Below, piece after piece: positions 49,252 to 60,233 of a stretch of 64,000 nucleotides of DNA. The DNA is taken from the sequence record PP400787. One strand, given 5' to 3'. Each line of letters begins with the position of its first letter. Within the stretch, counting starts at the first letter, position 1. The notes beneath the pieces are model-generated. The model did no database searches. It was not told the DNA's origin and worked only from the letters and a program-made list of their open reading frames with translations. The translations under genes were made by a program, and so were the position numbers. The DNA is from Escherichia phage FL23.

Positions 49252-49271
49252 AATAACGCGTGGCGGAAAAT

Positions 49272-49619
49272 ATGAATTTTAATTATTACCCTATTCTATT
49301 AGAAAAAGACATGAAACAGCCAAAATGGCAAGGTCCTCAGTTTATTAAAGGTGTCTATCAATTAGTAGTTCCTAAAGACAAGATTTATAGCAGTTGTTTC
49401 ACTGAATCCGCTTGCAGTATTTTCGGTAATAGTTCTCCGTATTGGAATTTTGACATAAAGCTGGATAGAAATATCGATATTTGGTTGAAAGCTATGGATA
49501 TTGGTAATATCACGTTTGATGAGAATAATTATCATATTATTGGTCGCTTTTCCAAACGCGGTAAAGAATTATATTTCACGCCTGAAATTGAGAGAAAATT
49601 TGATGCTAAACCGTATTGA
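49272..49619 (+). CDS. hypothetical protein inserted between frd and td, 115 aa (GTG 49260 alternative)
   Basis: Open frame filling a ~410-bp spacer between frd and td; weak RBS. Confidence 0.45.
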   Translation: MNFNYYPILLEKDMKQPKWQGPQFIKGVYQLVVPKDKIYSSCFTESACSIFGNSSPYWNFDIKLDRNIDIWLKAMDIGNITFDENNYHIIGRFSKRGKELYFTPEIERKFDAKPY

Positions 49620-49663
49620 TTATTAGCTTCATAAAATGTATTATAATTTATATAAGGTACTAA

Positions 49664-50212
49664 ATGAAACAATACCAAGATTTAATTAAAGACATTTTTG
49701 AAAATGGTTATGAAACCGATGACCGAACAGGCACAGGAACAATTGCTTTGTTCGGTACTAAATTGCGTTGGGATTTAACTAAAGGTTTTCCTGCAGTAAC
49801 AACTAAGAAGCTCGCCTGGAAAGCTTGCATTGCTGAGCTGCTTTGGTTTTTATCGGGAAGCACAAATGTCAATGATTTGCGATTAATTCAACATGATTCG
49901 TTAATCCAAGGCAAAACAGTTTGGGATGAAAATTACGAAAATCAAGCAAAAGATTTAGGATACCATAGCGGTGAACTTGGTCCAATTTATGGAAAACAGT
50001 GGCGTGATTTTGGTGGTGTAGACCAAATTATAGAAGTTATTGATCGTATTAAAAAATTGCCAAATGATAGGCGTCAAATTGTTTCAGCATGGAATCCAGC
50101 TGAACTCAAGCAGATGGCATTACCGCCTTGTCATATGTTCTATCAGTTTAATGTGCGTAATGGATACCTTGACCTTCAGTGGTATCAACGATCAGTAGAT
50201 GTTTTCTTGGGT
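49664..50212 (+). CDS. td: thymidylate synthase, exon 1 (183 codons)
   Basis: TS N-terminal sequence ending ...DVFLG, followed immediately by the intron 5' end TAATTGAGGCCTGAGTATAAGGTGAC. Confidence 0.92.
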
Positions 50213-51228
50213 TAATTGAGGCCTGAGTATAAGGTGACTTATACTTGTAATCTATCTAAACGGGGAACCTCTCTAGTAGACAATCCCGTGCTAAATTGTA
50301 GGACTGCCCTTTAATAAATACTTCTATATTTAAAGAGGTATTTATGAAAAGCGGAATTTATCAGATTAAAAATACTTTAAACAATAAAGTATATGTAGGA
50401 AGTGCTAAAGATTTTGAAAAGAGATGGAAGAGGCATTTTAAAGATTTAGAAAAAGGATGCCATTCTTCTATAAAGCTTCAGAGGTCTTTTAACAAACATG
50501 GTAATGTGTTTGAATGTTCTATTTTGGAAGAAATTCCATATGAGAAAGATTTGATTATTGAACGAGAAAATTTTTGGATTAAAGAGCTTAATTCTAAAAT
50601 TAATGGATACAATATTGCTGATGCAACGTTTGGTGATACATGTTCTACGCATCCATTAAAAGAAGAAATTATTAAGAAACGTTCTGAAACTGTTAAAGCT
50701 AAGATGCTTAAACTTGGACCTGATGGTCGGAAAGCTCTTTACAGTAAACCCGGAAGTAAAAACGGGCGTTGGAATCCAGAAACCCATAAGTTTTGTAAGT
50801 GCGGTGTTCGCATACAAACTTCTGCTTATACTTGTAGTAAATGCAGAAATCGTTCAGGTGAAAATAATTCATTCTTTAATCATAAGCATTCAGACATAAC
50901 TAAATCTAAAATATCAGAAAAGATGAAAGGTAAAAAGCCTAGTAATATTAAAAAGATTTCATGTGATGGGGTTATTTTTGATTGTGCAGCAGATGCAGCT
51001 AGACATTTTAAAATTTCGTCTGGATTAGTTACTTATCGTGTAAAATCTGATAAATGGAATTGGTTCTACATAAATGCCTAACGACTATCCCTTTGGGGAG
51101 TAGGGTCAAGTGACTCGAAACGATAGACAACTTGCTTTAACAAGTTGGAGATATAGTCTGATCTGCATGGTGACATGCAGCTGGATATAATTCCGGGGTA
51201 AGATTAACGACCTTATCTGAACATAATG
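50213..51228 (+). mobile_element. td group I self-splicing intron (1016 nt) carrying I-TevI
   Basis: 5' sequence matches the T4 td intron as recalled; ends ...ACATAATG before exon 2. Confidence 0.88.
50344..51081 (+). CDS. I-TevI: I-TevI GIY-YIG homing endonuclease, 245 aa
   Basis: MKSGIYQIKNTLNNKVYVGSAKDFEKRWKRH GIY-YIG motif; C-terminal zinc finger and DNA-binding domain. Confidence 0.92.
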   Translation: MKSGIYQIKNTLNNKVYVGSAKDFEKRWKRHFKDLEKGCHSSIKLQRSFNKHGNVFECSILEEIPYEKDLIIERENFWIKELNSKINGYNIADATFGDTCSTHPLKEEIIKKRSETVKAKMLKLGPDGRKALYSKPGSKNGRWNPETHKFCKCGVRIQTSAYTCSKCRNRSGENNSFFNHKHSDITKSKISEKMKGKKPSNIKKISCDGVIFDCAADAARHFKISSGLVTYRVKSDKWNWFYINA

Positions 51229-51540
51229 CTTCCATTTAATATTGCATCATATGCTGCGTTAGTTCATATTGTAGCTAAGATGTGTAATCTTATCCCAGGA
51301 GATTTGATATTTTCTGGTGGTAATACTCATATCTATATGAATCACGTAGAACAATGTAAAGAAATTTTACGTCGTGAGCCTAAAGAACTGTGCGAACTTA
51401 AAATTGATTGGCCTATAGAGTTTGAAAATTGTGACACCGAAACACAGCTTTACTGGTTAACTGAATACATGAAACCGAAAGATTTTATCCTTGAAAATTA
51501 TGAATCGCATCCGGCAATTAAAGGGAAAATGGCAATATGA
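51229..51540 (+). CDS. td: thymidylate synthase, exon 2 (103 codons)
   Basis: In-frame continuation [15 protein letters not shown]...; exon 1 + exon 2 = 286 aa. Confidence 0.9.
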
Positions 51541-51800
51541 TTTTACGATTTAAAGATACTTCTGGCGTTGTTCTTTTTACACTTCCTAACCCAAGCGAGT
51601 TAGAAGTTCCAGGACCAGAACAGCCTATTATCATTTATGGTAAAAAATATTATACTCATAAAATGACTCGTGAGTATTTTGATAATAAAATTTCCACAGT
51701 TAAAACTTCTTCAGATTGTTACTATGATATTACTGTATTAACGGAAAAACAATATGACGAATTATCAACGCGCGGGCCGTCTATGCCAGGTAGTGAATAA
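51537..51800 (+). CDS. hypothetical protein, 87 aa
   Basis: ATGA overlap with td stop. Confidence 0.5.
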
Positions 51801-52080
51801 ATATAAATCCGACTTTGATGTTAATATTCACCGTGGTACATTTTGGGGAAATTACGTCGGTAAAGATGCTGGCAGCCGGGAGGCTGCCATTGAATTATTC
51901 AAAAAAGATTTTATACGTCGAATTAAATCCGGAGAAATAACTAAAGCACATTTAGAGCCTTTACGTGGAATGAGGCTAGGATGCACATGTAAACCAAAGC
52001 CGTGTCATGGTGATATAATAGCTCATATAGTTAACCGATTGTTTAAAGACGATTTTCAAGTTGAGGACTTATGCAATTAA
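51754..52080 (+). CDS. hypothetical protein, 108 aa
   Basis: ORF; overlaps both neighbours. Confidence 0.5.
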
Positions 52081-53504
52081 TTAATGTTATCAAAAGTAGT
52101 GGTGTTTCTCAGAGCTTTGACCCGCAAAAAATTATTAAAGTTTTATCTTGGGCAGCTGAGGGAACATCAGTAGATCCTTATGAATTATATGAAAATATTA
52201 AATCATATCTCCGTGATGGAATGACCACTGATGATATTCAGACTATTGTCATTAAGGCCGCTGCGAATTCTATTTCGGTTGAAGAACCTGATTATCAATA
52301 TGTAGCTGCACGCTGTTTAATGTTTGCTCTTCGTAAGCATGTTTATGGGCAGTATGAACCACGTTCATTTATTGACCATATTTCTTACTGTGTAAATGAA
52401 GGTAAATATGACCCTGAATTATTGTCAAAATATTCAGCAGAAGAAATTACATTTTTAGAATCAAAAATTAAGCACGAACGGGATATGGAATTTACTTATT
52501 CCGGGGCGATGCAATTAAAAGAAAAATATCTAGTTAAAGATAAAACCACTGGTCAAATTTATGAAACTCCGCAGTTTGCATTTATGACTATTGGAATGGC
52601 ACTGCATCAAGATGAACCTGTTGACAGATTAAAACATGTTATTCGTTTTTATGAAGCAGTATCTACTCGACAGATTTCACTGCCAACTCCTATTATGGCT
52701 GGTTGCCGTACTCCAACTCGACAGTTTAGTTCATGCGTTGTTATTGAAGCAGGTGATTCGCTGAAGTCTATCAATAAGGCTTCTGCTTCAATTGTTGAGT
52801 ATATTTCTAAACGAGCTGGAATTGGCATTAACGTTGGTATGATTCGTGCTGAAGGTTCTAAGATTGGCACAGGTGAAGTGCGTCATACTGGCGTTATTCC
52901 TTTTTGGAAACATTTTCAGACTGCTGTTAAATCATGCTCACAGGGTGGAATTCGTGGCGGCGCTGCTACTGCTTATTATCCTATTTGGCATTTGGAAGTT
53001 GAAAATCTTCTCGTTTTGAAAAATAACAAAGGCGTAGAAGAAAACCGTATCCGTCATATGGATTATGGCGTCCAGCTGAATGATTTGATGATGGAACGTT
53101 TTGGAAAGAACGACTACATCACTTTGTTCAGTCCACATGAAATGGGTGGCGAACTTTATTATTCTTATTTTAAAGACCAAGACCGTTTCCGTGAATTGTA
53201 CGAAGCAGCAGAAAAAGACCCTAATATTCGTAAAAAGCGTATTAAAGCTCGTGAACTATTTGAATTGCTCATGACTGAACGTTCAGGAACAGCAAGGATT
53301 TATGTACAGTTCATTGATAATACGAATAACTATACTCCGTTTATTCGTGAAAAGGCGCCTATTCGTCAGAGTAACTTGTGCTGTGAAATTGCTATTCCAA
53401 CAAATGATGTGAATAGCCAACAAACCCGTTTAATCAAAATTAAGAAGTCGGATGTAGCTAAGTTTTATGAAGCTAATCCTGGCGGTATAATTCAAAGCAA
53501 ATAA
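52071..53504 (+). CDS. nrdA: ribonucleotide reductase alpha subunit, N-terminal fragment (NrdA-a), 477 aa
   Basis: Class Ia RNR alpha homology through active-site NLCCEIAIPTNDV, then ~30 unrelated codons and stop. Confidence 0.85.
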   Translation: MQLINVIKSSGVSQSFDPQKIIKVLSWAAEGTSVDPYELYENIKSYLRDGMTTDDIQTIVIKAAANSISVEEPDYQYVAARCLMFALRKHVYGQYEPRSFIDHISYCVNEGKYDPELLSKYSAEEITFLESKIKHERDMEFTYSGAMQLKEKYLVKDKTTGQIYETPQFAFMTIGMALHQDEPVDRLKHVIRFYEAVSTRQISLPTPIMAGCRTPTRQFSSCVVIEAGDSLKSINKASASIVEYISKRAGIGINVGMIRAEGSKIGTGEVRHTGVIPFWKHFQTAVKSCSQGGIRGGAATAYYPIWHLEVENLLVLKNNKGVEENRIRHMDYGVQLNDLMMERFGKNDYITLFSPHEMGGELYYSYFKDQDRFRELYEAAEKDPNIRKKRIKARELFELLMTERSGTARIYVQFIDNTNNYTPFIREKAPIRQSNLCCEIAIPTNDVNSQQTRLIKIKKSDVAKFYEANPGGIIQSK

Positions 53505-53549
53505 AGTACACAGACCGTTAATAAATAATCCATAACAAGAGGAAAAGTT

Positions 53550-54260
53550 ATGGATTATTTTAAAATTTACAATAACCTTATTTCTAAAGCTAAGAATAGA
53601 AAATTAGATTGCTATACCGAATCACACCATATTATACCTCTGTGTATTGGTGGTTCTGATACAAAGGAAAACCTGGTAGATTTGACACCAGAAGAGCATT
53701 ACATAGCTCATCAATTATTAGTAAAGATATATCCAGATAATCATAAATTGATATTTGCCGCTAATATGATGTGTGTTTATTCTAAAGATAATATTGAACG
53801 AAAGAACACCAATAAACGCCATGGGTGGCTTAGAAGAAAATTGGCTATTTCTGTATCTGAAAATAATAAAGGCAAACCAGCTTGGAACAAAGGTATTCCT
53901 ATGTCTCCAGAAGTTAAATCTCGACTTCAAACATCTTGGGTGTTTACATTTCCGGATGGTCATGAGGAAATTCATCGAGGTCTTAACGAATTTTGTAAAG
54001 AGCATAATTTAAATCCATCTGCAATGTCAGCCGTTTGTAAAGGTAAACGGTCGCATCACAAAGGATTTAAGTGTAAGAAATTGGATAAGATTTCAGAGCT
54101 TGATAATTTAGTTTTCGTCAGTAAACCTCATCCAAAGGGATTAAAACCCCATAACTTAATTGCTGTAAAAATAAACGGTATAGAATATCAATCAATACAT
54201 CGAGCATCTAAAGCTTTAGGAATTACTAGAAAAAAGGTAGAAGAATTAAATGAATATTGA
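53550..54260 (+). CDS. HNH homing endonuclease (Mob-like) inserted within nrdA, 236 aa
   Basis: HNH motif ESHHIIP...KENLV...EEHYIAH; C-terminal NUMOD-like motifs (GKPAWNKG, IEYQSIHRASKALGI). Confidence 0.8.
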   Translation: MDYFKIYNNLISKAKNRKLDCYTESHHIIPLCIGGSDTKENLVDLTPEEHYIAHQLLVKIYPDNHKLIFAANMMCVYSKDNIERKNTNKRHGWLRRKLAISVSENNKGKPAWNKGIPMSPEVKSRLQTSWVFTFPDGHEEIHRGLNEFCKEHNLNPSAMSAVCKGKRSHHKGFKCKKLDKISELDNLVFVSKPHPKGLKPHNLIAVKINGIEYQSIHRASKALGITRKKVEELNEY

Positions 54261-55239
54261 TTATGAATTTGTAGATGAATTTTACGAAGATGATGAGTAT
54301 ACTACAATAAAAGTTATTGAAAACAAGGGAGAAGTGGGGCTTTGTACTCTCTCTGCATTCGTACTAGATAATTTTGACTGGCAAGACCAAGATAAAATTA
54401 ATGAATTGGCAGAAGTTCAAGTTCGTGCTCTTGATAATCTTTTGGATTACCAAGGATATCCAGTTCCTGAAGCAGAAAAAGCTAAAAAGCGTCGTAACCT
54501 TGGTGTAGGTGTTACTAACTATGCAGCTTGGCTGGCAAGTAACTTTGCTTCTTATGAAGATGCTAACGATTTAACACATGAACTATTTGAGAGATTACAG
54601 TATGGACTCATTAAAGCATCCATTAAGCTCGCCAAAGAAAAAGGACCTTGCGAATATTATTCAGACACTCGTTGGTCTCGAGGCGAACTACCTATCGACT
54701 GGTACAATAAAAAGATTGACCAAATCGCAGCTCCAAAATACGTTTGTGACTGGTCGTCGCTGCGGGAAGACCTTAAGCTCTTTGGCATCCGTAATAGCAC
54801 ATTATCAGCACTTATGCCATGTGAGTCATCTTCCCAAGTTTCTAACAGTACAAACGGTATCGAGCCTCCACGTGGACCGGTAAGTGTTAAAGAATCAAAA
54901 GAGGGTTCATTTAATCAAGTTGTTCCGAATATTGAGCATAACATAGACCTTTACGACTATACATGGAAATTAGCTAAGAAAGGTAATAAACCTTATCTTA
55001 CGCAGGTAGCTATTATGCTGAAATGGGTATGTCAATCGGCTTCAGCGAATACATATTATGACCCACAGATTTTTCCAAAAGGAAAGGTTCCAATGTCAAT
55101 AATGATTGATGATATGCTATACGGATGGTATTATGGCATTAAAAATTTCTATTATCATAATACCCGCGATGGTTCTGGTACTGATGATTATGAAATAGAA
55201 ACTCCAAAAGCAGATGATTGTTCATCCTGTAAATTATGA
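54250..55239 (+). CDS. nrdA: ribonucleotide reductase alpha subunit, C-terminal fragment (NrdA-b), 329 aa
   Basis: From GEVGLCTLSAF colinear with NrdA C-terminal half to the CxxC tail; own ATG overlapping the HNH stop. Confidence 0.85.
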   Translation: MNIDYEFVDEFYEDDEYTTIKVIENKGEVGLCTLSAFVLDNFDWQDQDKINELAEVQVRALDNLLDYQGYPVPEAEKAKKRRNLGVGVTNYAAWLASNFASYEDANDLTHELFERLQYGLIKASIKLAKEKGPCEYYSDTRWSRGELPIDWYNKKIDQIAAPKYVCDWSSLREDLKLFGIRNSTLSALMPCESSSQVSNSTNGIEPPRGPVSVKESKEGSFNQVVPNIEHNIDLYDYTWKLAKKGNKPYLTQVAIMLKWVCQSASANTYYDPQIFPKGKVPMSIMIDDMLYGWYYGIKNFYYHNTRDGSGTDDYEIETPKADDCSSCKL

Positions 55240-56848
55240 TATAATTACCACAAGGATGTGGTTAACTAAGAATAACGCTATGTTTGATAATATATACAAA
55301 AACGGAAAGTTTCTTCCATTTGGAGAAGAAAAACTTAAATCTAGACTAACAGAAGAAGATAAAGCTCTTCTAACTGATGGAATAGATTTTAAGCTCAATG
55401 TGTTCCAAATTATGGAAGGCATTGACATTAACGATCTAAAATGTGCAGTTTGTGGAAATTTCATTTCTCTGAAAACGGCAAAGAAACGTGTATTTCCAGC
55501 AACATGTAGTAAATCCTGCGCAGGGATATTTTTCGCGGATAAGAGAATTCAAAGCCGTGATACAAATTTTGGCGGAAAAGAAAAATATAAAAAATATTTG
55601 TCTGAACTTCAACGCAAAAATTCTTTAGAAAAATATGGAACAACTCATCAAAAAATTTCAAGAAATAAAAATAGAAAAACTTTAATTGAACGATATGGGG
55701 TAACGCATAATTCACAATTAGAAAGTGTGAAAGAAGCGAGAAAAGTTATAGAAAACGGTAAATCAGTTGATATTCTGAATTCTAGAAAATCTCGCGAAAA
55801 ATCTAAGAAGACTAAATTAAATTGGACTGAAGAATATAAGGCATCGTTATATTCATCTATAGGAAAATCTATTAAAAATAACGGTCATATTAATCATGAT
55901 ATACTAGATAAAATCAATTACAAAATTTCTATAGAAGAACTACAACAATTAGCAAATTGTTCTCGGATGACGGCTTATAGAGCTCTTTCATCCAAAGGAC
56001 TAATTGACGTTCATTATACTCAAAGTTCTATAGAGCAATTCATTTTAGATCTAGGATTTGATTGCGTAGAAACTAGAAAAATTATTCCTCCGTATGAATT
56101 AGATATTTACATTCCTGAGAAAAAATTGGCTATAGAATACGATGGAATTTATTGGCATTCTAGCGGGTCAAAGGAAACAGATAAAATTAAAGAAACTTAT
56201 CATTTGATGAAGACAGAGATGTGTGAAGCACAAGGAATTCAATTACTTCACATCTTCGAAAATGAATGGATTGATGATACAAAAAGAGAGATCTGGAAAT
56301 CCATTATAAAGCATAAATTAGGATTATCAGAAAGAATACCAGCCCGAAAATGCAAAGCGCGTTTTGTTAATAAGGATGAGGCAAAAGAATTTATTAATAA
56401 GAATCATCTTCAAGGATTTTGCTCGGGAGCTCATACGTATAAAGGACTTTATTACAATAATGAGTTAGTTCAAATTATTTCTATCGGTAAATCTAGATAT
56501 AGCTCAGGTGATGAACTTTTAAGGATGTGTTCAAAATTAGGGATTTGTGTTGTAGGAGGAGCCTCAAAATTATTAAAAGGAATTAATTGTCTATCTTATG
56601 GCAATCGAAGATGGTGCAGTACATTATCAAATGTTTATGACTCTGTCATGGAATTTAGTCATATCTCTGAGCCGTGTTATTGGTATGTCGATAAAGGAGA
56701 GGTATTTCACCGCTCGAGCTATATGAAACATAAGCTTAAAAACAAGCTTAAAAATTATGATGATACAATAACTGAAGTAGAAAATTGTTATGCAAATGGT
56801 CTTAGAAGAATCTGGGACTGTGGAAATTTAGTTTACAGGACAAAATAA
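55214..56848 (+). CDS. large putative nuclease: Zn ribbon, YG-TH repeats, Vsr/DUF559-like PD-(D/E)xK core and uncharacterised C-terminal domain (up to 544 aa; likely start 55256 or 55280)
   Basis: Motifs CAVCGNF...CSKSC, EKYGTTH/ERYGVTHNSQ repeats, YELDIYIPEKKLAIEYDGIYWHS...GIQLLHIFENEW. Confidence 0.6.
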   Translation: MIVHPVNYDIITTRMWLTKNNAMFDNIYKNGKFLPFGEEKLKSRLTEEDKALLTDGIDFKLNVFQIMEGIDINDLKCAVCGNFISLKTAKKRVFPATCSKSCAGIFFADKRIQSRDTNFGGKEKYKKYLSELQRKNSLEKYGTTHQKISRNKNRKTLIERYGVTHNSQLESVKEARKVIENGKSVDILNSRKSREKSKKTKLNWTEEYKASLYSSIGKSIKNNGHINHDILDKINYKISIEELQQLANCSRMTAYRALSSKGLIDVHYTQSSIEQFILDLGFDCVETRKIIPPYELDIYIPEKKLAIEYDGIYWHSSGSKETDKIKETYHLMKTEMCEAQGIQLLHIFENEWIDDTKREIWKSIIKHKLGLSERIPARKCKARFVNKDEAKEFINKNHLQGFCSGAHTYKGLYYNNELVQIISIGKSRYSSGDELLRMCSKLGICVVGGASKLLKGINCLSYGNRRWCSTLSNVYDSVMEFSHISEPCYWYVDKGEVFHRSSYMKHKLKNKLKNYDDTITEVENCYANGLRRIWDCGNLVYRTK

Positions 56849-57523
56849 TGAGTACAGTTTTTAATACTAAACAGGTCGATGTTTTAAAAGAACCTATGTT
56901 TTTTGGTTCAGGTCTTGGTATTGCGCGTTATGATATTCAACGGCATCGAGTATTTGAAGAACTTATTGAACGTCAGCTCTCGTTTTTCTGGCGTCCTGAA
57001 GAAGTAAACTTGATGATGGATGCTGCACAGTTTAATAAGCTTCCTCAGTATCAACAAAATATTTTTACTAATAATCTGAAGTATCAATCATTACTTGATA
57101 GTATTCAAGGTCGTGCGCCGTCTGCTGTACTTATGCCATTGCTTTCAGACCCAAGCCTTGATACATGGGTTGCTACATGGACTTTTAGTGAAACTATTCA
57201 CAGTCGTTCATATACTCATATCATGCGAAATCTTTATACTGATCCGTCAAAGGTATTTGATGAGATTGTATTAGATGAAGCTATTATGAAACGTGCTGAA
57301 TCTATCGGTCGTTATTATGATGATGTTCTGACTAAAACCCGTGAATGGGAAAATGCTAAAGAATTTGTAGAACTAGCTAAAGAATCTCCTGATGCCGACT
57401 TTCGTTTAAACCGAGCTATTAAACAAGAAGCCGAAGCTAAACGTGCTTTAATGAAATCTCTTTACCTCTGTTTGCACGTTATTAATGCCTTAGAAGCTAT
57501 TCGTTTTTATGTATCTTTTGCGT
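56848..57523 (+). CDS. nrdB: ribonucleotide reductase beta subunit, exon 1
   Basis: NrdB homology to ...IRFYVSFA; frame is then interrupted; junction assigned so the split codon T|GT gives the conserved Cys. Confidence 0.85.
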
Positions 57524-58115
57524 AAAATGCGCCTTTAAACGGTAACGTTTATCGAAAACTCCTTTAATTGCTGGAAAGTCCTTTATAGGAAAACTAGCAG
57601 CCAAGGTTTTGCTTGCACCTTTAATTAGTATAATATGATTATACTTTTAAGAGGATGCACAATTGAACTATAGAAAAATTTGGATAGATGCTAACGGACC
57701 TACCTAAAGATTCTGATGGAAGACCATAAGAAAAGAACATCAGCAAAAACATTAGAAATGGTTAAGAATGGGACCCATCCTGCACAAAAAGAAATCACAT
57801 GTGATTTCTGCGGTCACATTGGTAAAGGTCCTGGATTTTATCTAAAACATAATGACAGATGTAAATTAAATCCAAATAGAATTCAATTGAATTGTCCATA
57901 TTGTGATAAGAAAGATTTATCACCATCAACATATAAACGATGGCACGGCGACAATTGCAAAGCAAGGTTCAACGACTAGTCTTCGGACGTAGGGTCAAGC
58001 GACTCGAAATGGGGAGAATCCCTCTGGGATTGTGATATAGTCTGGTCTGCATAGTAATATGTAGCAGTTCATAAGAGAACGGGTTGAGAATTAGCGAGCT
58101 CAATCGAACATAACG
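57524..58115 (+). mobile_element. nrdB group I intron (~592 nt) with truncated endonuclease ORF
   Basis: Non-coding insertion at the position of the T4 nrdB intron; 3' end ...GAACATAACG parallels td intron 3' end; boundaries approximate. Confidence 0.75.
57716..57979 (+). CDS. I-TevIII-like remnant (Cys-rich DNA-binding part, no HNH domain), 87 aa
   Basis: CDFCGH...CPYCDKK...C zinc-finger motifs only; inside the nrdB intron. Confidence 0.5.
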   Translation: MEDHKKRTSAKTLEMVKNGTHPAQKEITCDFCGHIGKGPGFYLKHNDRCKLNPNRIQLNCPYCDKKDLSPSTYKRWHGDNCKARFND

Positions 58116-58618
58116 GTACCTTTAACTTCCATAAAAACATGGAAATCATGGAAGGTAATGCCAAGATTATGAAGTTCATTGCACGTGATGAGCAGCTTCA
58201 TCTTAAAGGTACACAATATATTATTCGTCAACTTCAATCTGGTACTGATGGCGATGAATGGGTTAAAATTGCTCAAGAGTGCGAGCAAGAAGCAGTTGAT
58301 ATTTTCATGGAAGTTAACCGCCAAGAAAAAGATTGGGCAGTTCATTTATTTAAAGATGGCGATGTTCCTGGATTAAATACAAATAGCATGTGGAGCTTTA
58401 TTGATTACTTAACTGTATCTCGTATGAAACAGTGTGGTCTTCCATGCCCAATTACCGATGCTCCGGTTAAACACCCATATCCTTGGATTCGTGAATATCT
58501 TAATTCTGATAATGTTCAATCCGCGCCACAAGAAGTAGAACTGTCATCTTACCTTGTTGCGCAGATTGATAATGATGTTGATGATAAAGTTATGATGAGT
58601 TTTAAAAAATACTTTTAA
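58116..58618 (+). CDS. nrdB: ribonucleotide reductase beta subunit, exon 2
   Basis: Continues ...TFNFHKNMEIMEGNAKIMKFIARDEQLHL, colinear with NrdB. Confidence 0.85.
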
Positions 58619-58623
58619 GGAGT

Positions 58624-58643
58624 GGGCCGCAAGGCCCATTTTA
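58624..58643 (+). terminator. hairpin after nrdB
   Basis: gggcc-gcaa-ggccc followed by ATTTTATT. Confidence 0.55.
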
Positions 58644-58645
58644 TT

Positions 58646-60233
<1,588 letters not shown>

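Follow-up and report, generated by a model that had tools for sequence, protein, structure and literature searches.

In the DNA of Escherichia phage FL23 (sequence record PP400787), of which a stretch of 64,000 nucleotides (nt), one strand read from 5' to 3' and here called the window, was analysed, the thymidylate synthase gene td, the gene nrdA and the ribonucleotide reductase (RNR) small-subunit gene nrdB each occur in two pieces. This poses the question of what stands between the pieces: self-splicing introns that leave the genes functional, insertions that have inactivated them, or mobile cassettes that have divided them into separate genes. A preliminary description of the same DNA, made from the letters alone, had placed one group I intron in td and another in nrdB, the first with an intact and the second with a decayed homing endonuclease. 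Comparison of sequences points, with a probability of roughly 93%, to the interruptions of td and nrdB being the T4-family group I self-splicing introns of these two genes, spliced as proposed below, the one carrying I-TevI and its homing function and the other a relic of I-TevIII, within a homing-endonuclease island. The interruption of nrdA is, by its sequence, of a different nature, a cassette with a free-standing endonuclease gene of the MobE type.

Splice Boundaries and Restored Reading Frames

The td intron follows the exon-final T at 50212 and has the G at 51228 as its terminal base; the nrdB intron follows the T at 57523 and terminates with the G at 58115. Their 3' ends read ...GAACATAATG and ...GAACATAACG, in keeping with the (T/C)G ending that had been proposed for both. 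The boundaries suggested in the preliminary description (50213-51228 and 57524-58115) proved exact, excision restoring the frames of both td and nrdB: the joined exons are open over 861 nt for td and 1179 nt for nrdB. Spliced Td, 286 amino acids (aa) long, aligns from residue 1 to 286 with T4 Td (1TIS, E 6e-180), free of gaps at ...VDVFLG/LPFNIA..., where the slash marks the exon junction; spliced NrdB, 392 aa long, aligns continuously with Escherichia coli R2 across ...FYVSFAC/TFNF....

At the 5' splice sites, the P1 helix of td would be formed by exon UUGGGU and intron GCCUGA (50221-50226), six of six pairs being standard or wobble, and that of nrdB by exon GCGU and intron GCGC (57529-57532), with four of four pairs; both helices finish with the terminal U.G pair. 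Each RNA would fold into a group I core, and two guanosine-initiated transesterifications, using the exon-final U.G pair in P1 and the intron-terminal G, would excise the intron and join the exons into functional mRNAs for thymidylate synthase and the RNR small subunit.

Group I Cores and their Natural Relatives

When the window is scanned with Rfam by E-value, the group I intron model Intron_gpI (RF00028; the T4 introns of td, nrdB and nrdD are of subgroup IA2) matches at 50950-51180 in td with 42.5 bits and at 57824-58064 in nrdB with 34 bits, both below the gathering cut-off of 50 bits for this model; they are the only Rfam matches of the window at E up to 0.01, and there is no other group I intron signal in the 64 kb down to that value. 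Both introns fall short of the cut-off because the true 5' core stands upstream of an open reading frame (ORF), by hundreds of nucleotides in each intron, and the 5' half of the model is aligned to the ORF in its place. Natural alleles free of the ORF, or with a reduced one, exceed the cut-off: in td those of HMD-9 (254 nt, 72.7 bits) and HP3.2 (320 nt, 70.3 bits), and in nrdB those of CE1 (304 nt, 68.6 bits) and SG1 (418 nt, 57.9 bits). Upstream as well as downstream of the ORF, their cores are 97-99% identical to those of the window (97-98% for the td alleles). The covariance-model scan, which the preliminary description had put forward as a check, speaks in this way for two group I introns, the sub-threshold matches being the only ones to Intron_gpI in the window and the ORF-less alleles passing the threshold. 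The remaining weak Rfam matches (L20 leader, snoRNAs; E > 1) were set aside as chance matches.

Covariation points the same way. In P9 of the nrdB intron, CUGCAUG/CAUGCAG of T4 is replaced by CUGCAUA/UAUGUAG in the window, a compensatory change of G-C to A-U together with one of G-C to G-U, and in P8 of the td intron, AACUUG/CAAGUU in the window stands against AUCUUG/CAAGAU in HMD-9, again a compensatory change; such events are few because the sequences are very close. The two inserts are ~97-99.7% identical to the td and nrdB group I introns of T4 and RB3 (97-98% for the nrdB intron outside its deletion, described below), and their 3' halves are ~70% identical to each other, as expected of homologous T4 introns. 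The td intron, used as a query, gave matches in 289 records, with a coverage of 80% or more in 196; the nrdB intron gave matches in 128, most of them with full-length I-TevIII. Self-splicing of the T4 introns is established (PMC2988022).

Natural alleles of both introns in which the endonuclease ORF is partly or wholly deleted (CE1, SG1, HMD-9, HP3.2 and e11/2) span 254-445 nt for td and 304-418 nt for nrdB. They constitute a graded decay series and, in addition, handy compact positive controls for covariance-model scans.

An Intact Endonuclease in the td Intron

The I-TevI gene of the td intron is intact by every sequence criterion, which bears out the full-length endonuclease ascribed to this intron beforehand: its 245-aa product contains all three Pfam domains, GIY-YIG, I-TevI_ZnF and I-TevI_DNA-bd (E 2e-18, 1e-20 and 3e-32), and matches PDB entries for the catalytic domain (1MK0/1LN0) over residues 1-97 and for the DNA-binding domain (1I3J) over residues 130-245, and the gene differs from that of T4 by a single synonymous change. 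Its leader harbors a late-promoter-like AATAAATA at 50313 and a hairpin of -16.6 kcal/mol that sequesters the Shine-Dalgarno sequence, both in keeping with the way in which the gene is regulated in T4 (PMC2988022). As in T4, the enzyme would be made late in infection: early read-through transcripts would keep its ribosome-binding site hidden in the hairpin, and those that start at the late promoter of the intron would expose it. The gene would sit in a peripheral loop of the td intron; the enzyme would cut the intron-less td of co-infecting phages, and repair would copy the intron in.

A Relic of I-TevIII in the nrdB Intron

Full-length I-TevIII, as found in phage RB3, has 269 aa and an HNH_3 domain at residues 4-48. 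Relative to RB3, the nrdB intron of the window is short of 491 nt, flanked by GAAGAACA and GAAGACCA as imperfect direct repeats (GAAGA(A/C)CA); codons 22-183 of I-TevIII are deleted, the HNH catalytic domain is gone with them, and the N-terminal stub is frameshifted. Downstream of the deletion lies an ORF of 87 aa that, from residue 2 to 87, has 100% identity with residues 184-269 of RB3 I-TevIII and that corresponds to positions 184-269 of 269 in PHROG 12324. It is rich in cysteine, with two C-x2-C...H-x3-C (CCHC zinc-finger-like) motifs, and gave no Pfam match below E = 0.03. The preliminary description, which had seen in this intron only an 87-aa Cys-rich DNA-binding part of I-TevIII devoid of the HNH domain and had recommended the comparison with RB3, is upheld. 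With the HNH domain deleted and the stub frameshifted, the I-TevIII ORF is therefore a remnant, not a member enzyme.

The T4 nrdB intron is in the same situation, its I-TevIII being defective (PMC2790892) and annotated as "defective ... deletion in proximal half". To judge by the alignment, the window copy is further decayed than that of T4: a 6-nt deletion removes the late promoter TATAAATA, which T4 and RB3 retain, and the loss of 2 further nt shifts the frame of the stub. No Shine-Dalgarno sequence was found upstream of the ATG at 57716.

The intron was aligned to those of RB3, T4, SG1 and CE1 and to seven other short forms. Eight short-form introns share the 491-nt deletion, AV114 being short of a further 13 nt at the junction. 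Each short form has its own extra indels in the ORF and the promoter region, and the ribozyme core is almost invariant across the eight; in or just after the start of the 87-aa ORF, FL12 is frameshifted by -2, FL18 and ESh36 by -1 and ESh36 also by -12, and AV114 has a longer deletion. As read from these alignments, such a pattern of indels marks a relic that is free of selection and is housed in a ribozyme that is not. The series from full-length I-TevIII through the 491-nt deletion and further frameshifts to ORF-less introns amounts to a stepwise record of decay.

At the deletion junction, five phages (FL44, G8, FL18, Manna and ESh36), some with an RB3-type and some with a T4-type backbone, have GAAGACCAT, and T4 has GAAGAACAT. 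The simpler and preferred reading is one old deletion that would have spread by recombination, plus one substitution in T4; independent recurrence of the deletion in T4 and FL44, which the one-base difference at the junction could suggest, was less preferred in view of the occurrence of GAAGACCAT on both types of backbone. The two junction versions correspond to crossovers at different parts of the same imperfect 8-nt repeat.

In the proposed course of events, deletion between the repeats would have removed the HNH domain and shifted the frame, leaving an intron with a complete ribozyme core and a relic of an endonuclease gene. From its sequence, the nrdB intron would be able to splice and unable to home alone, and it probably persists because precise loss is rare.

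A MobE-Type Cassette Divides nrdA

An HNH gene within nrdA had also been noted beforehand, and it is present as described. By alignment with the uninterrupted nrdA of T4 and G8, it belongs to an insertion that replaces 8 nt of the uninterrupted gene (the codons for PDA in ...NDVNS-PDAEI-GLCTL...) and that consists of the part of nrdA-a that encodes its tail, a spacer of 45 nt, the HNH gene and the part of nrdA-b that encodes its head. NrdA-a is 96% identical to T4 NrdA up to ...NDVNS and NrdA-b 94% identical from GLCTLSAF onward; the insertion falls between the equivalents of Cys439 and Cys462. The nrdA-a gene closes with a stop codon; nrdA-b begins at a separate ATG that overlaps the HNH gene, 11 nt before the end of the latter. 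The HNH protein is 46% identical to Aeh1 MobE over 227 aa (E 1e-57), has a Pfam I-HmuI NUMOD-like domain and a weak HNH match, and belongs to PHROG 655, a homing endonuclease family. A 14-base-pair hairpin encloses its AUG (-14.5 kcal/mol, z -3.9), and a second late-promoter-like AATAAATA, at 53520, overlaps the 5' arm of this hairpin; as far as sequence can tell, this combination is the usual T-even control of endonuclease genes. Judged by homology and layout, the HNH gene in nrdA is part of an Aeh1-type mobE cassette that divides nrdA into two separately translated genes, and is within neither an intron nor an intein.

In Aeh1, the two NrdA polypeptides assemble into an active RNR for which their charged tails are essential, and mass spectrometry shows the tails retained in two separate mature proteins (PMC3045599). 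The NrdA-a tail of the window aligns to the Aeh1 NrdA-A tail (L.K.KKS.V.KF) and the NrdA-b head to the Aeh1 NrdA-B head (M.I..E...E.YED.EYTT), so that the two halves of the coliphage protein would be expected to reassemble in their turn through oppositely charged tails. According to the 2010 study of Aeh1, its tails matched nothing in the databases (PMC3045599). A translated nucleotide search (tblastn) with the Aeh1 tail now matches only Aeh1 and the coliphage cassette, and a protein homologue search with the 71 N-terminal aa of NrdA-b was uninformative, yielding just one fragment, of 73 aa. The coliphage tail occurs in 34 records, 98-100% conserved, all from T4-like phages of Escherichia, Shigella, Yersinia or Salmonella; nrdA is uninterrupted in T4 and G8, and the allele is polymorphic among coliphages. 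The coliphage split nrdA is already known in outline: bioRxiv 10.1101/2022.08.31.505936 mentions, as unpublished data, "Aeh1 and several others" with such insertions and conserved extensions.

It is on balance probable that the cassette is a self-contained mobile unit with its own "antidote" in the shape of the charged tails, that these tails are a conserved part of the element, and that it is currently mobile and polymorphic among the T-even phages of E. coli. If this is true, it answers where the Aeh1 tails came from, namely from a conserved part of the element and not from randomly captured DNA, and it brings the system within reach of T4/E. coli genetics, with homing and the function of the tails open to direct tests.

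Hef in the Place of MobE

The large nuclease ORF noted earlier between nrdA and nrdB is likewise present. It is, by sequence, the known endonuclease Hef: its 544 aa are 98.9% identical over their full length to Hef of phage U5 (AY262133.2), and it matches the homing endonuclease family PHROG 3339 (E 7e-152) and, weakly, REase_MTES_1575. Hef is found at an identity of at least 95% in 16 records. In the window it has the split nrdA upstream and the short-form nrdB intron downstream. Hef of U5 is reported to cleave nrdB, as does MobE (reviewed in PMC2988022), and MobE is reported to mobilise the defunct nrdB intron of T4 in trans (PMC2790892). The nrdB intron may be co-converted when a neighbouring endonuclease cuts nrdB; here this neighbour would be Hef, in the place of mobE.

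Alternative Explanations

Several points weigh against reading this locus as two spliced T4-family introns with one active and one dead endonuclease in a homing island. At the gathering threshold, Rfam gave no match in the whole window, and the sub-threshold alignments lay the 5' half of the model on ORF sequence and not on the true 5' core. Splicing is deduced from the 97-99.7% identity to the T4 introns; the late expression, activity and homing of I-TevI, the assembly of the split NrdA and the activities of the MobE-like protein and of Hef are deduced from homology in the same manner. The I-TevIII remnant is open, and from residue 2 to 87 it has 100% identity with the active RB3 enzyme at its DNA-binding end, which leaves a slight chance of a residual function. 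That Hef in the stead of MobE keeps the dead nrdB intron circulating by trans-homing is, finally, a minor possibility drawn by analogy with MobE. The gathering-threshold result was rejected as evidence against introns, its shortfall being explained by the E-value scan and the ORF-less alleles. That same result, together with the GenBank annotation of phage FL44, in which td and nrdB appear as two coding sequences each and no intron is marked, could also be taken to mean that the inserts are inactivating insertions, that td and nrdB are pseudogenes and that the phage relies on host enzymes. Such an explanation is hardly credible in the face of boundaries that restore perfect frames, exons that are fully conserved and free of other lesions, near-identity to T4 introns of established self-splicing (PMC2988022) and ORF-less alleles that exceed the Rfam cut-off.

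Two further alternatives concern single elements within the locus. The 87-aa ORF might encode a functional small DNA-binding protein, either a repressor or a protector of the homing or operator site of I-TevIII, and besides its open frame and identity to RB3 it has both CCHC motifs intact; moreover, T4 intron endonucleases are known or proposed to be autorepressors through their DNA-binding domains (PMC2988022). This is nevertheless unlikely, given that its ATG has no Shine-Dalgarno sequence, that the 6-nt deletion has taken away the late promoter and that the related short forms differ in frameshifts in or just after the start, from which it follows that the reading frame is not conserved; as to the identical amino acids, the whole intron is ~97-99% conserved, so that they are uninformative on selection. 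A relic thus remains the preferred reading of the I-TevIII ORF. For nrdA, where RNR genes are frequent hosts of introns and inteins and where the insertion between active-site cysteines is a typical site for either, one could think of an unrecognised self-splicing intron around the HNH gene or of a degenerate (split) intein, NrdA being restored by RNA or protein splicing; the Aeh1 study itself considered that the tails might derive from a degenerate split intein (PMC3045599). This is very improbable: positions 53419-54330 have no Rfam match of any kind at E up to 10, neither NrdA half has an intein or Hint domain in Pfam, tails of 28 and 29 aa are too short for an intein fold, and the stop codon of nrdA-a and the ATG of nrdA-b reproduce the layout of Aeh1, where the mature proteins keep their tails. 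The mobE-type cassette with two nrdA genes is accordingly retained.

Genomic Neighbourhood and Annotation

The features discussed above are collected in Table 1. The order of genes on the + strand, which agrees with the T4 map, is frd, an extra 119-aa ORF, td (interrupted), nrdA.2, nrdA.1, nrdA (interrupted), the 544-aa ORF, nrdB (interrupted), denA and rnlA. The neighbourhood is a typical homing-endonuclease island. All four endonuclease-related elements of the preliminary description are there; the different states of activity that it assigned to them are deduced from sequence integrity.

Table 1. Positions in the window of the interrupted genes, their introns and the endonuclease-related elements
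Feature	Position	Strand	Remarks
td exon 1	49664..50212	+	ends ...TTCTTGGGT; last U forms P1 U.G pair; matches T4 Td 1TIS residues 1-183
td group I intron, T4 td type	50213..51228	+	1016 nt; core split into 5' and 3' parts around I-TevI ORF
I-TevI, intact GIY-YIG homing endonuclease, 245 aa	50344..51081	+	Pfam and PDB matches
td exon 2	51229..51540	+	in frame, ...LG/LPFNIASYA... aligned to 1TIS
nrdA-a	52071..53504	+	N-terminal 449 NrdA residues and 28-aa basic tail QQTRLIKIKKSDVAKFYEANPGGIIQSK, isoelectric point (pI) 10.0
MobE-type insertion cassette	53419..54330	+	912 bp, 31.8% GC; boundaries by alignment to uninterrupted nrdA of T4 and G8
MobE-like HNH homing endonuclease gene, 236 aa	53550..54260	+	46% identity to Aeh1 MobE
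nrdA-b	54250..55239	+	29-aa acidic head MNIDYEFVDEFYEDDEYTTIKVIENKGEV, pI 4.05, and C-terminal 300 NrdA residues
hef, free-standing homing endonuclease gene, 544 aa	55214..56848	+	in nrdA-nrdB gap, where T4 has mobE
nrdB exon 1	56848..57523	+	ends ...TTTTGCGT
nrdB group I intron, short (ORF-deleted) form, RB3-type backbone	57524..58115	+	592 nt
I-TevIII N-terminal stub, 14 codons	57663..57707	+	TTG start, MNYRKIWIDANGPT and stop; ended early by 2-nt deletion; alignment to RB3 ORF start
I-TevIII C-terminal remnant, 87 aa	57716..57979	+	deletion junction GAAGACCA at 57719-57726
nrdB exon 2	58116..58618	+	in frame, ...SFAC/TFNFHKNMEIMEGNAK... aligned to E. coli R2

Over the 9.1 kb from 49600 to 58700, the window matches Escherichia phage FL44 (PP400790.1; genus Tequatrovirus, source pig faeces) at 100% identity and many other T4-like phages at 96-98%; a search with the region matched ~1013 phage records, and only three genomes (FL44, F26 and Manna) contain the whole of it at 99% identity or above. 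The extra 119-aa ORF, at 49260-49619 between frd and td, matches PHROG 1928, of unknown function (E 2e-35), and has no Pfam match; since frd and td overlap directly in T4, it constitutes a ~410-bp insertion relative to T4. Between nrdB and denA, a GC-rich hairpin with a run of T after it (TGGGCCGCAAGGCCCATTTT, 58619-58650) resembles an intrinsic terminator; the annotation of phage G8 has a terminator at the equivalent place, and the hairpin is the source of the spurious weak match to the L20 leader in Rfam. For denA, the ATG at 58646 is probably the real start and the GTG at 58622 is not.

The practical value of the present analysis lies in correcting the annotation of PP400790.1, where nrdA, like td and nrdB, is entered as two separate coding sequences, four antisense "hypothetical proteins" are called in the nrdB intron (the annotation span corresponding to window 57496-58103), one small ORF is called at the start of the td intron (window 50213-50311) and Hef is labelled "hypothetical protein". 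In phage HY01, the split halves of nrdA are devoid of any annotation. The region offers a compact natural picture of the homing-endonuclease life cycle, with one presumably active intron endonuclease, one decayed and two free-standing ones. The introns and endonuclease elements are already described for T4, RB3, U5 and Aeh1 and are textbook T4 biology in a deposited genome; little is at stake in the intron finding itself, and the coliphage split nrdA is the sole part of some research value.

Comparison with Known Systems

The td intron shares with that of T4 (NC_000866) the insertion site, the 1016-nt architecture, the I-TevI protein and the leader with promoter and hairpin, and differs from it by one indel and two substitutions (3 nt differences overall). 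Between P7 and P9 it has an A where T4 has a C, and in ...GGACTTGCCC... (50259-50262), immediately 5' of the I-TevI late promoter/operator region, one T of a TT run is absent. Several database phages are 100% identical to the td intron of the window, which makes its variant the common one; at the TT run, the T4 reference may be the unusual variant. Exon 2 of td, unlike that of T4, encodes a divergent C-terminus of 45 aa, strongly diverging over its last ~45 codons in a Td that is nearly identical to T4 Td in the remainder, which is suggestive of a boundary, mosaic or recombinational, on the 3' side of the intron.

The nrdB intron has its insertion site and ribozyme core in common with T4 and with RB3 (AY262130.2), the 491-nt deletion between the same imperfect repeats with T4, and the remaining C-terminal coding sequence, that of residues 184-269, with RB3. 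It differs from T4 in that its backbone polymorphisms are RB3-type and not T4-type, its junction is GAAGACCAT instead of GAAGAACAT, its ORF has 87 aa instead of 97, its length is 592 nt instead of ~598 nt and its 3' end reads ...CATAACG instead of ...CATACG; the 6-nt deletion of the late promoter and the 2-nt deletion in the stub are additional to the state of T4. By comparison with Hef of U5, all 544 aa of Hef are aligned and the position between nrdA and nrdB is the same, with six or so amino-acid differences.

The closest counterpart of the split nrdA is the nrdA-a/mobE/nrdA-b locus of Aeh1 (PMC3045599). The two phages belong to different genera, Cinqassovirus for Aeh1 and Tequatrovirus for the window, and the coliphage allele is polymorphic, its close relatives T4 and G8 being uninterrupted. 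The Aeh1 cassette is conspicuously AT-rich for its own genome, whereas that of the window, at 31.8% GC, is close to its host genome (35%). Assembly of the RNR has been shown biochemically for Aeh1 only. In its architecture the locus is nonetheless the same: the loop that is interrupted, between the residues equivalent to Cys439 and Cys462, is the same; the spacer has 46 nt in Aeh1 and 45 nt in the window, MobE 237 and 236 aa, and the overlap with nrdA-b 14 and 11 nt, respectively; and the basic C-terminal tail and acidic N-terminal tail are homologous, with pI values of ~10 and ~4 in both phages.

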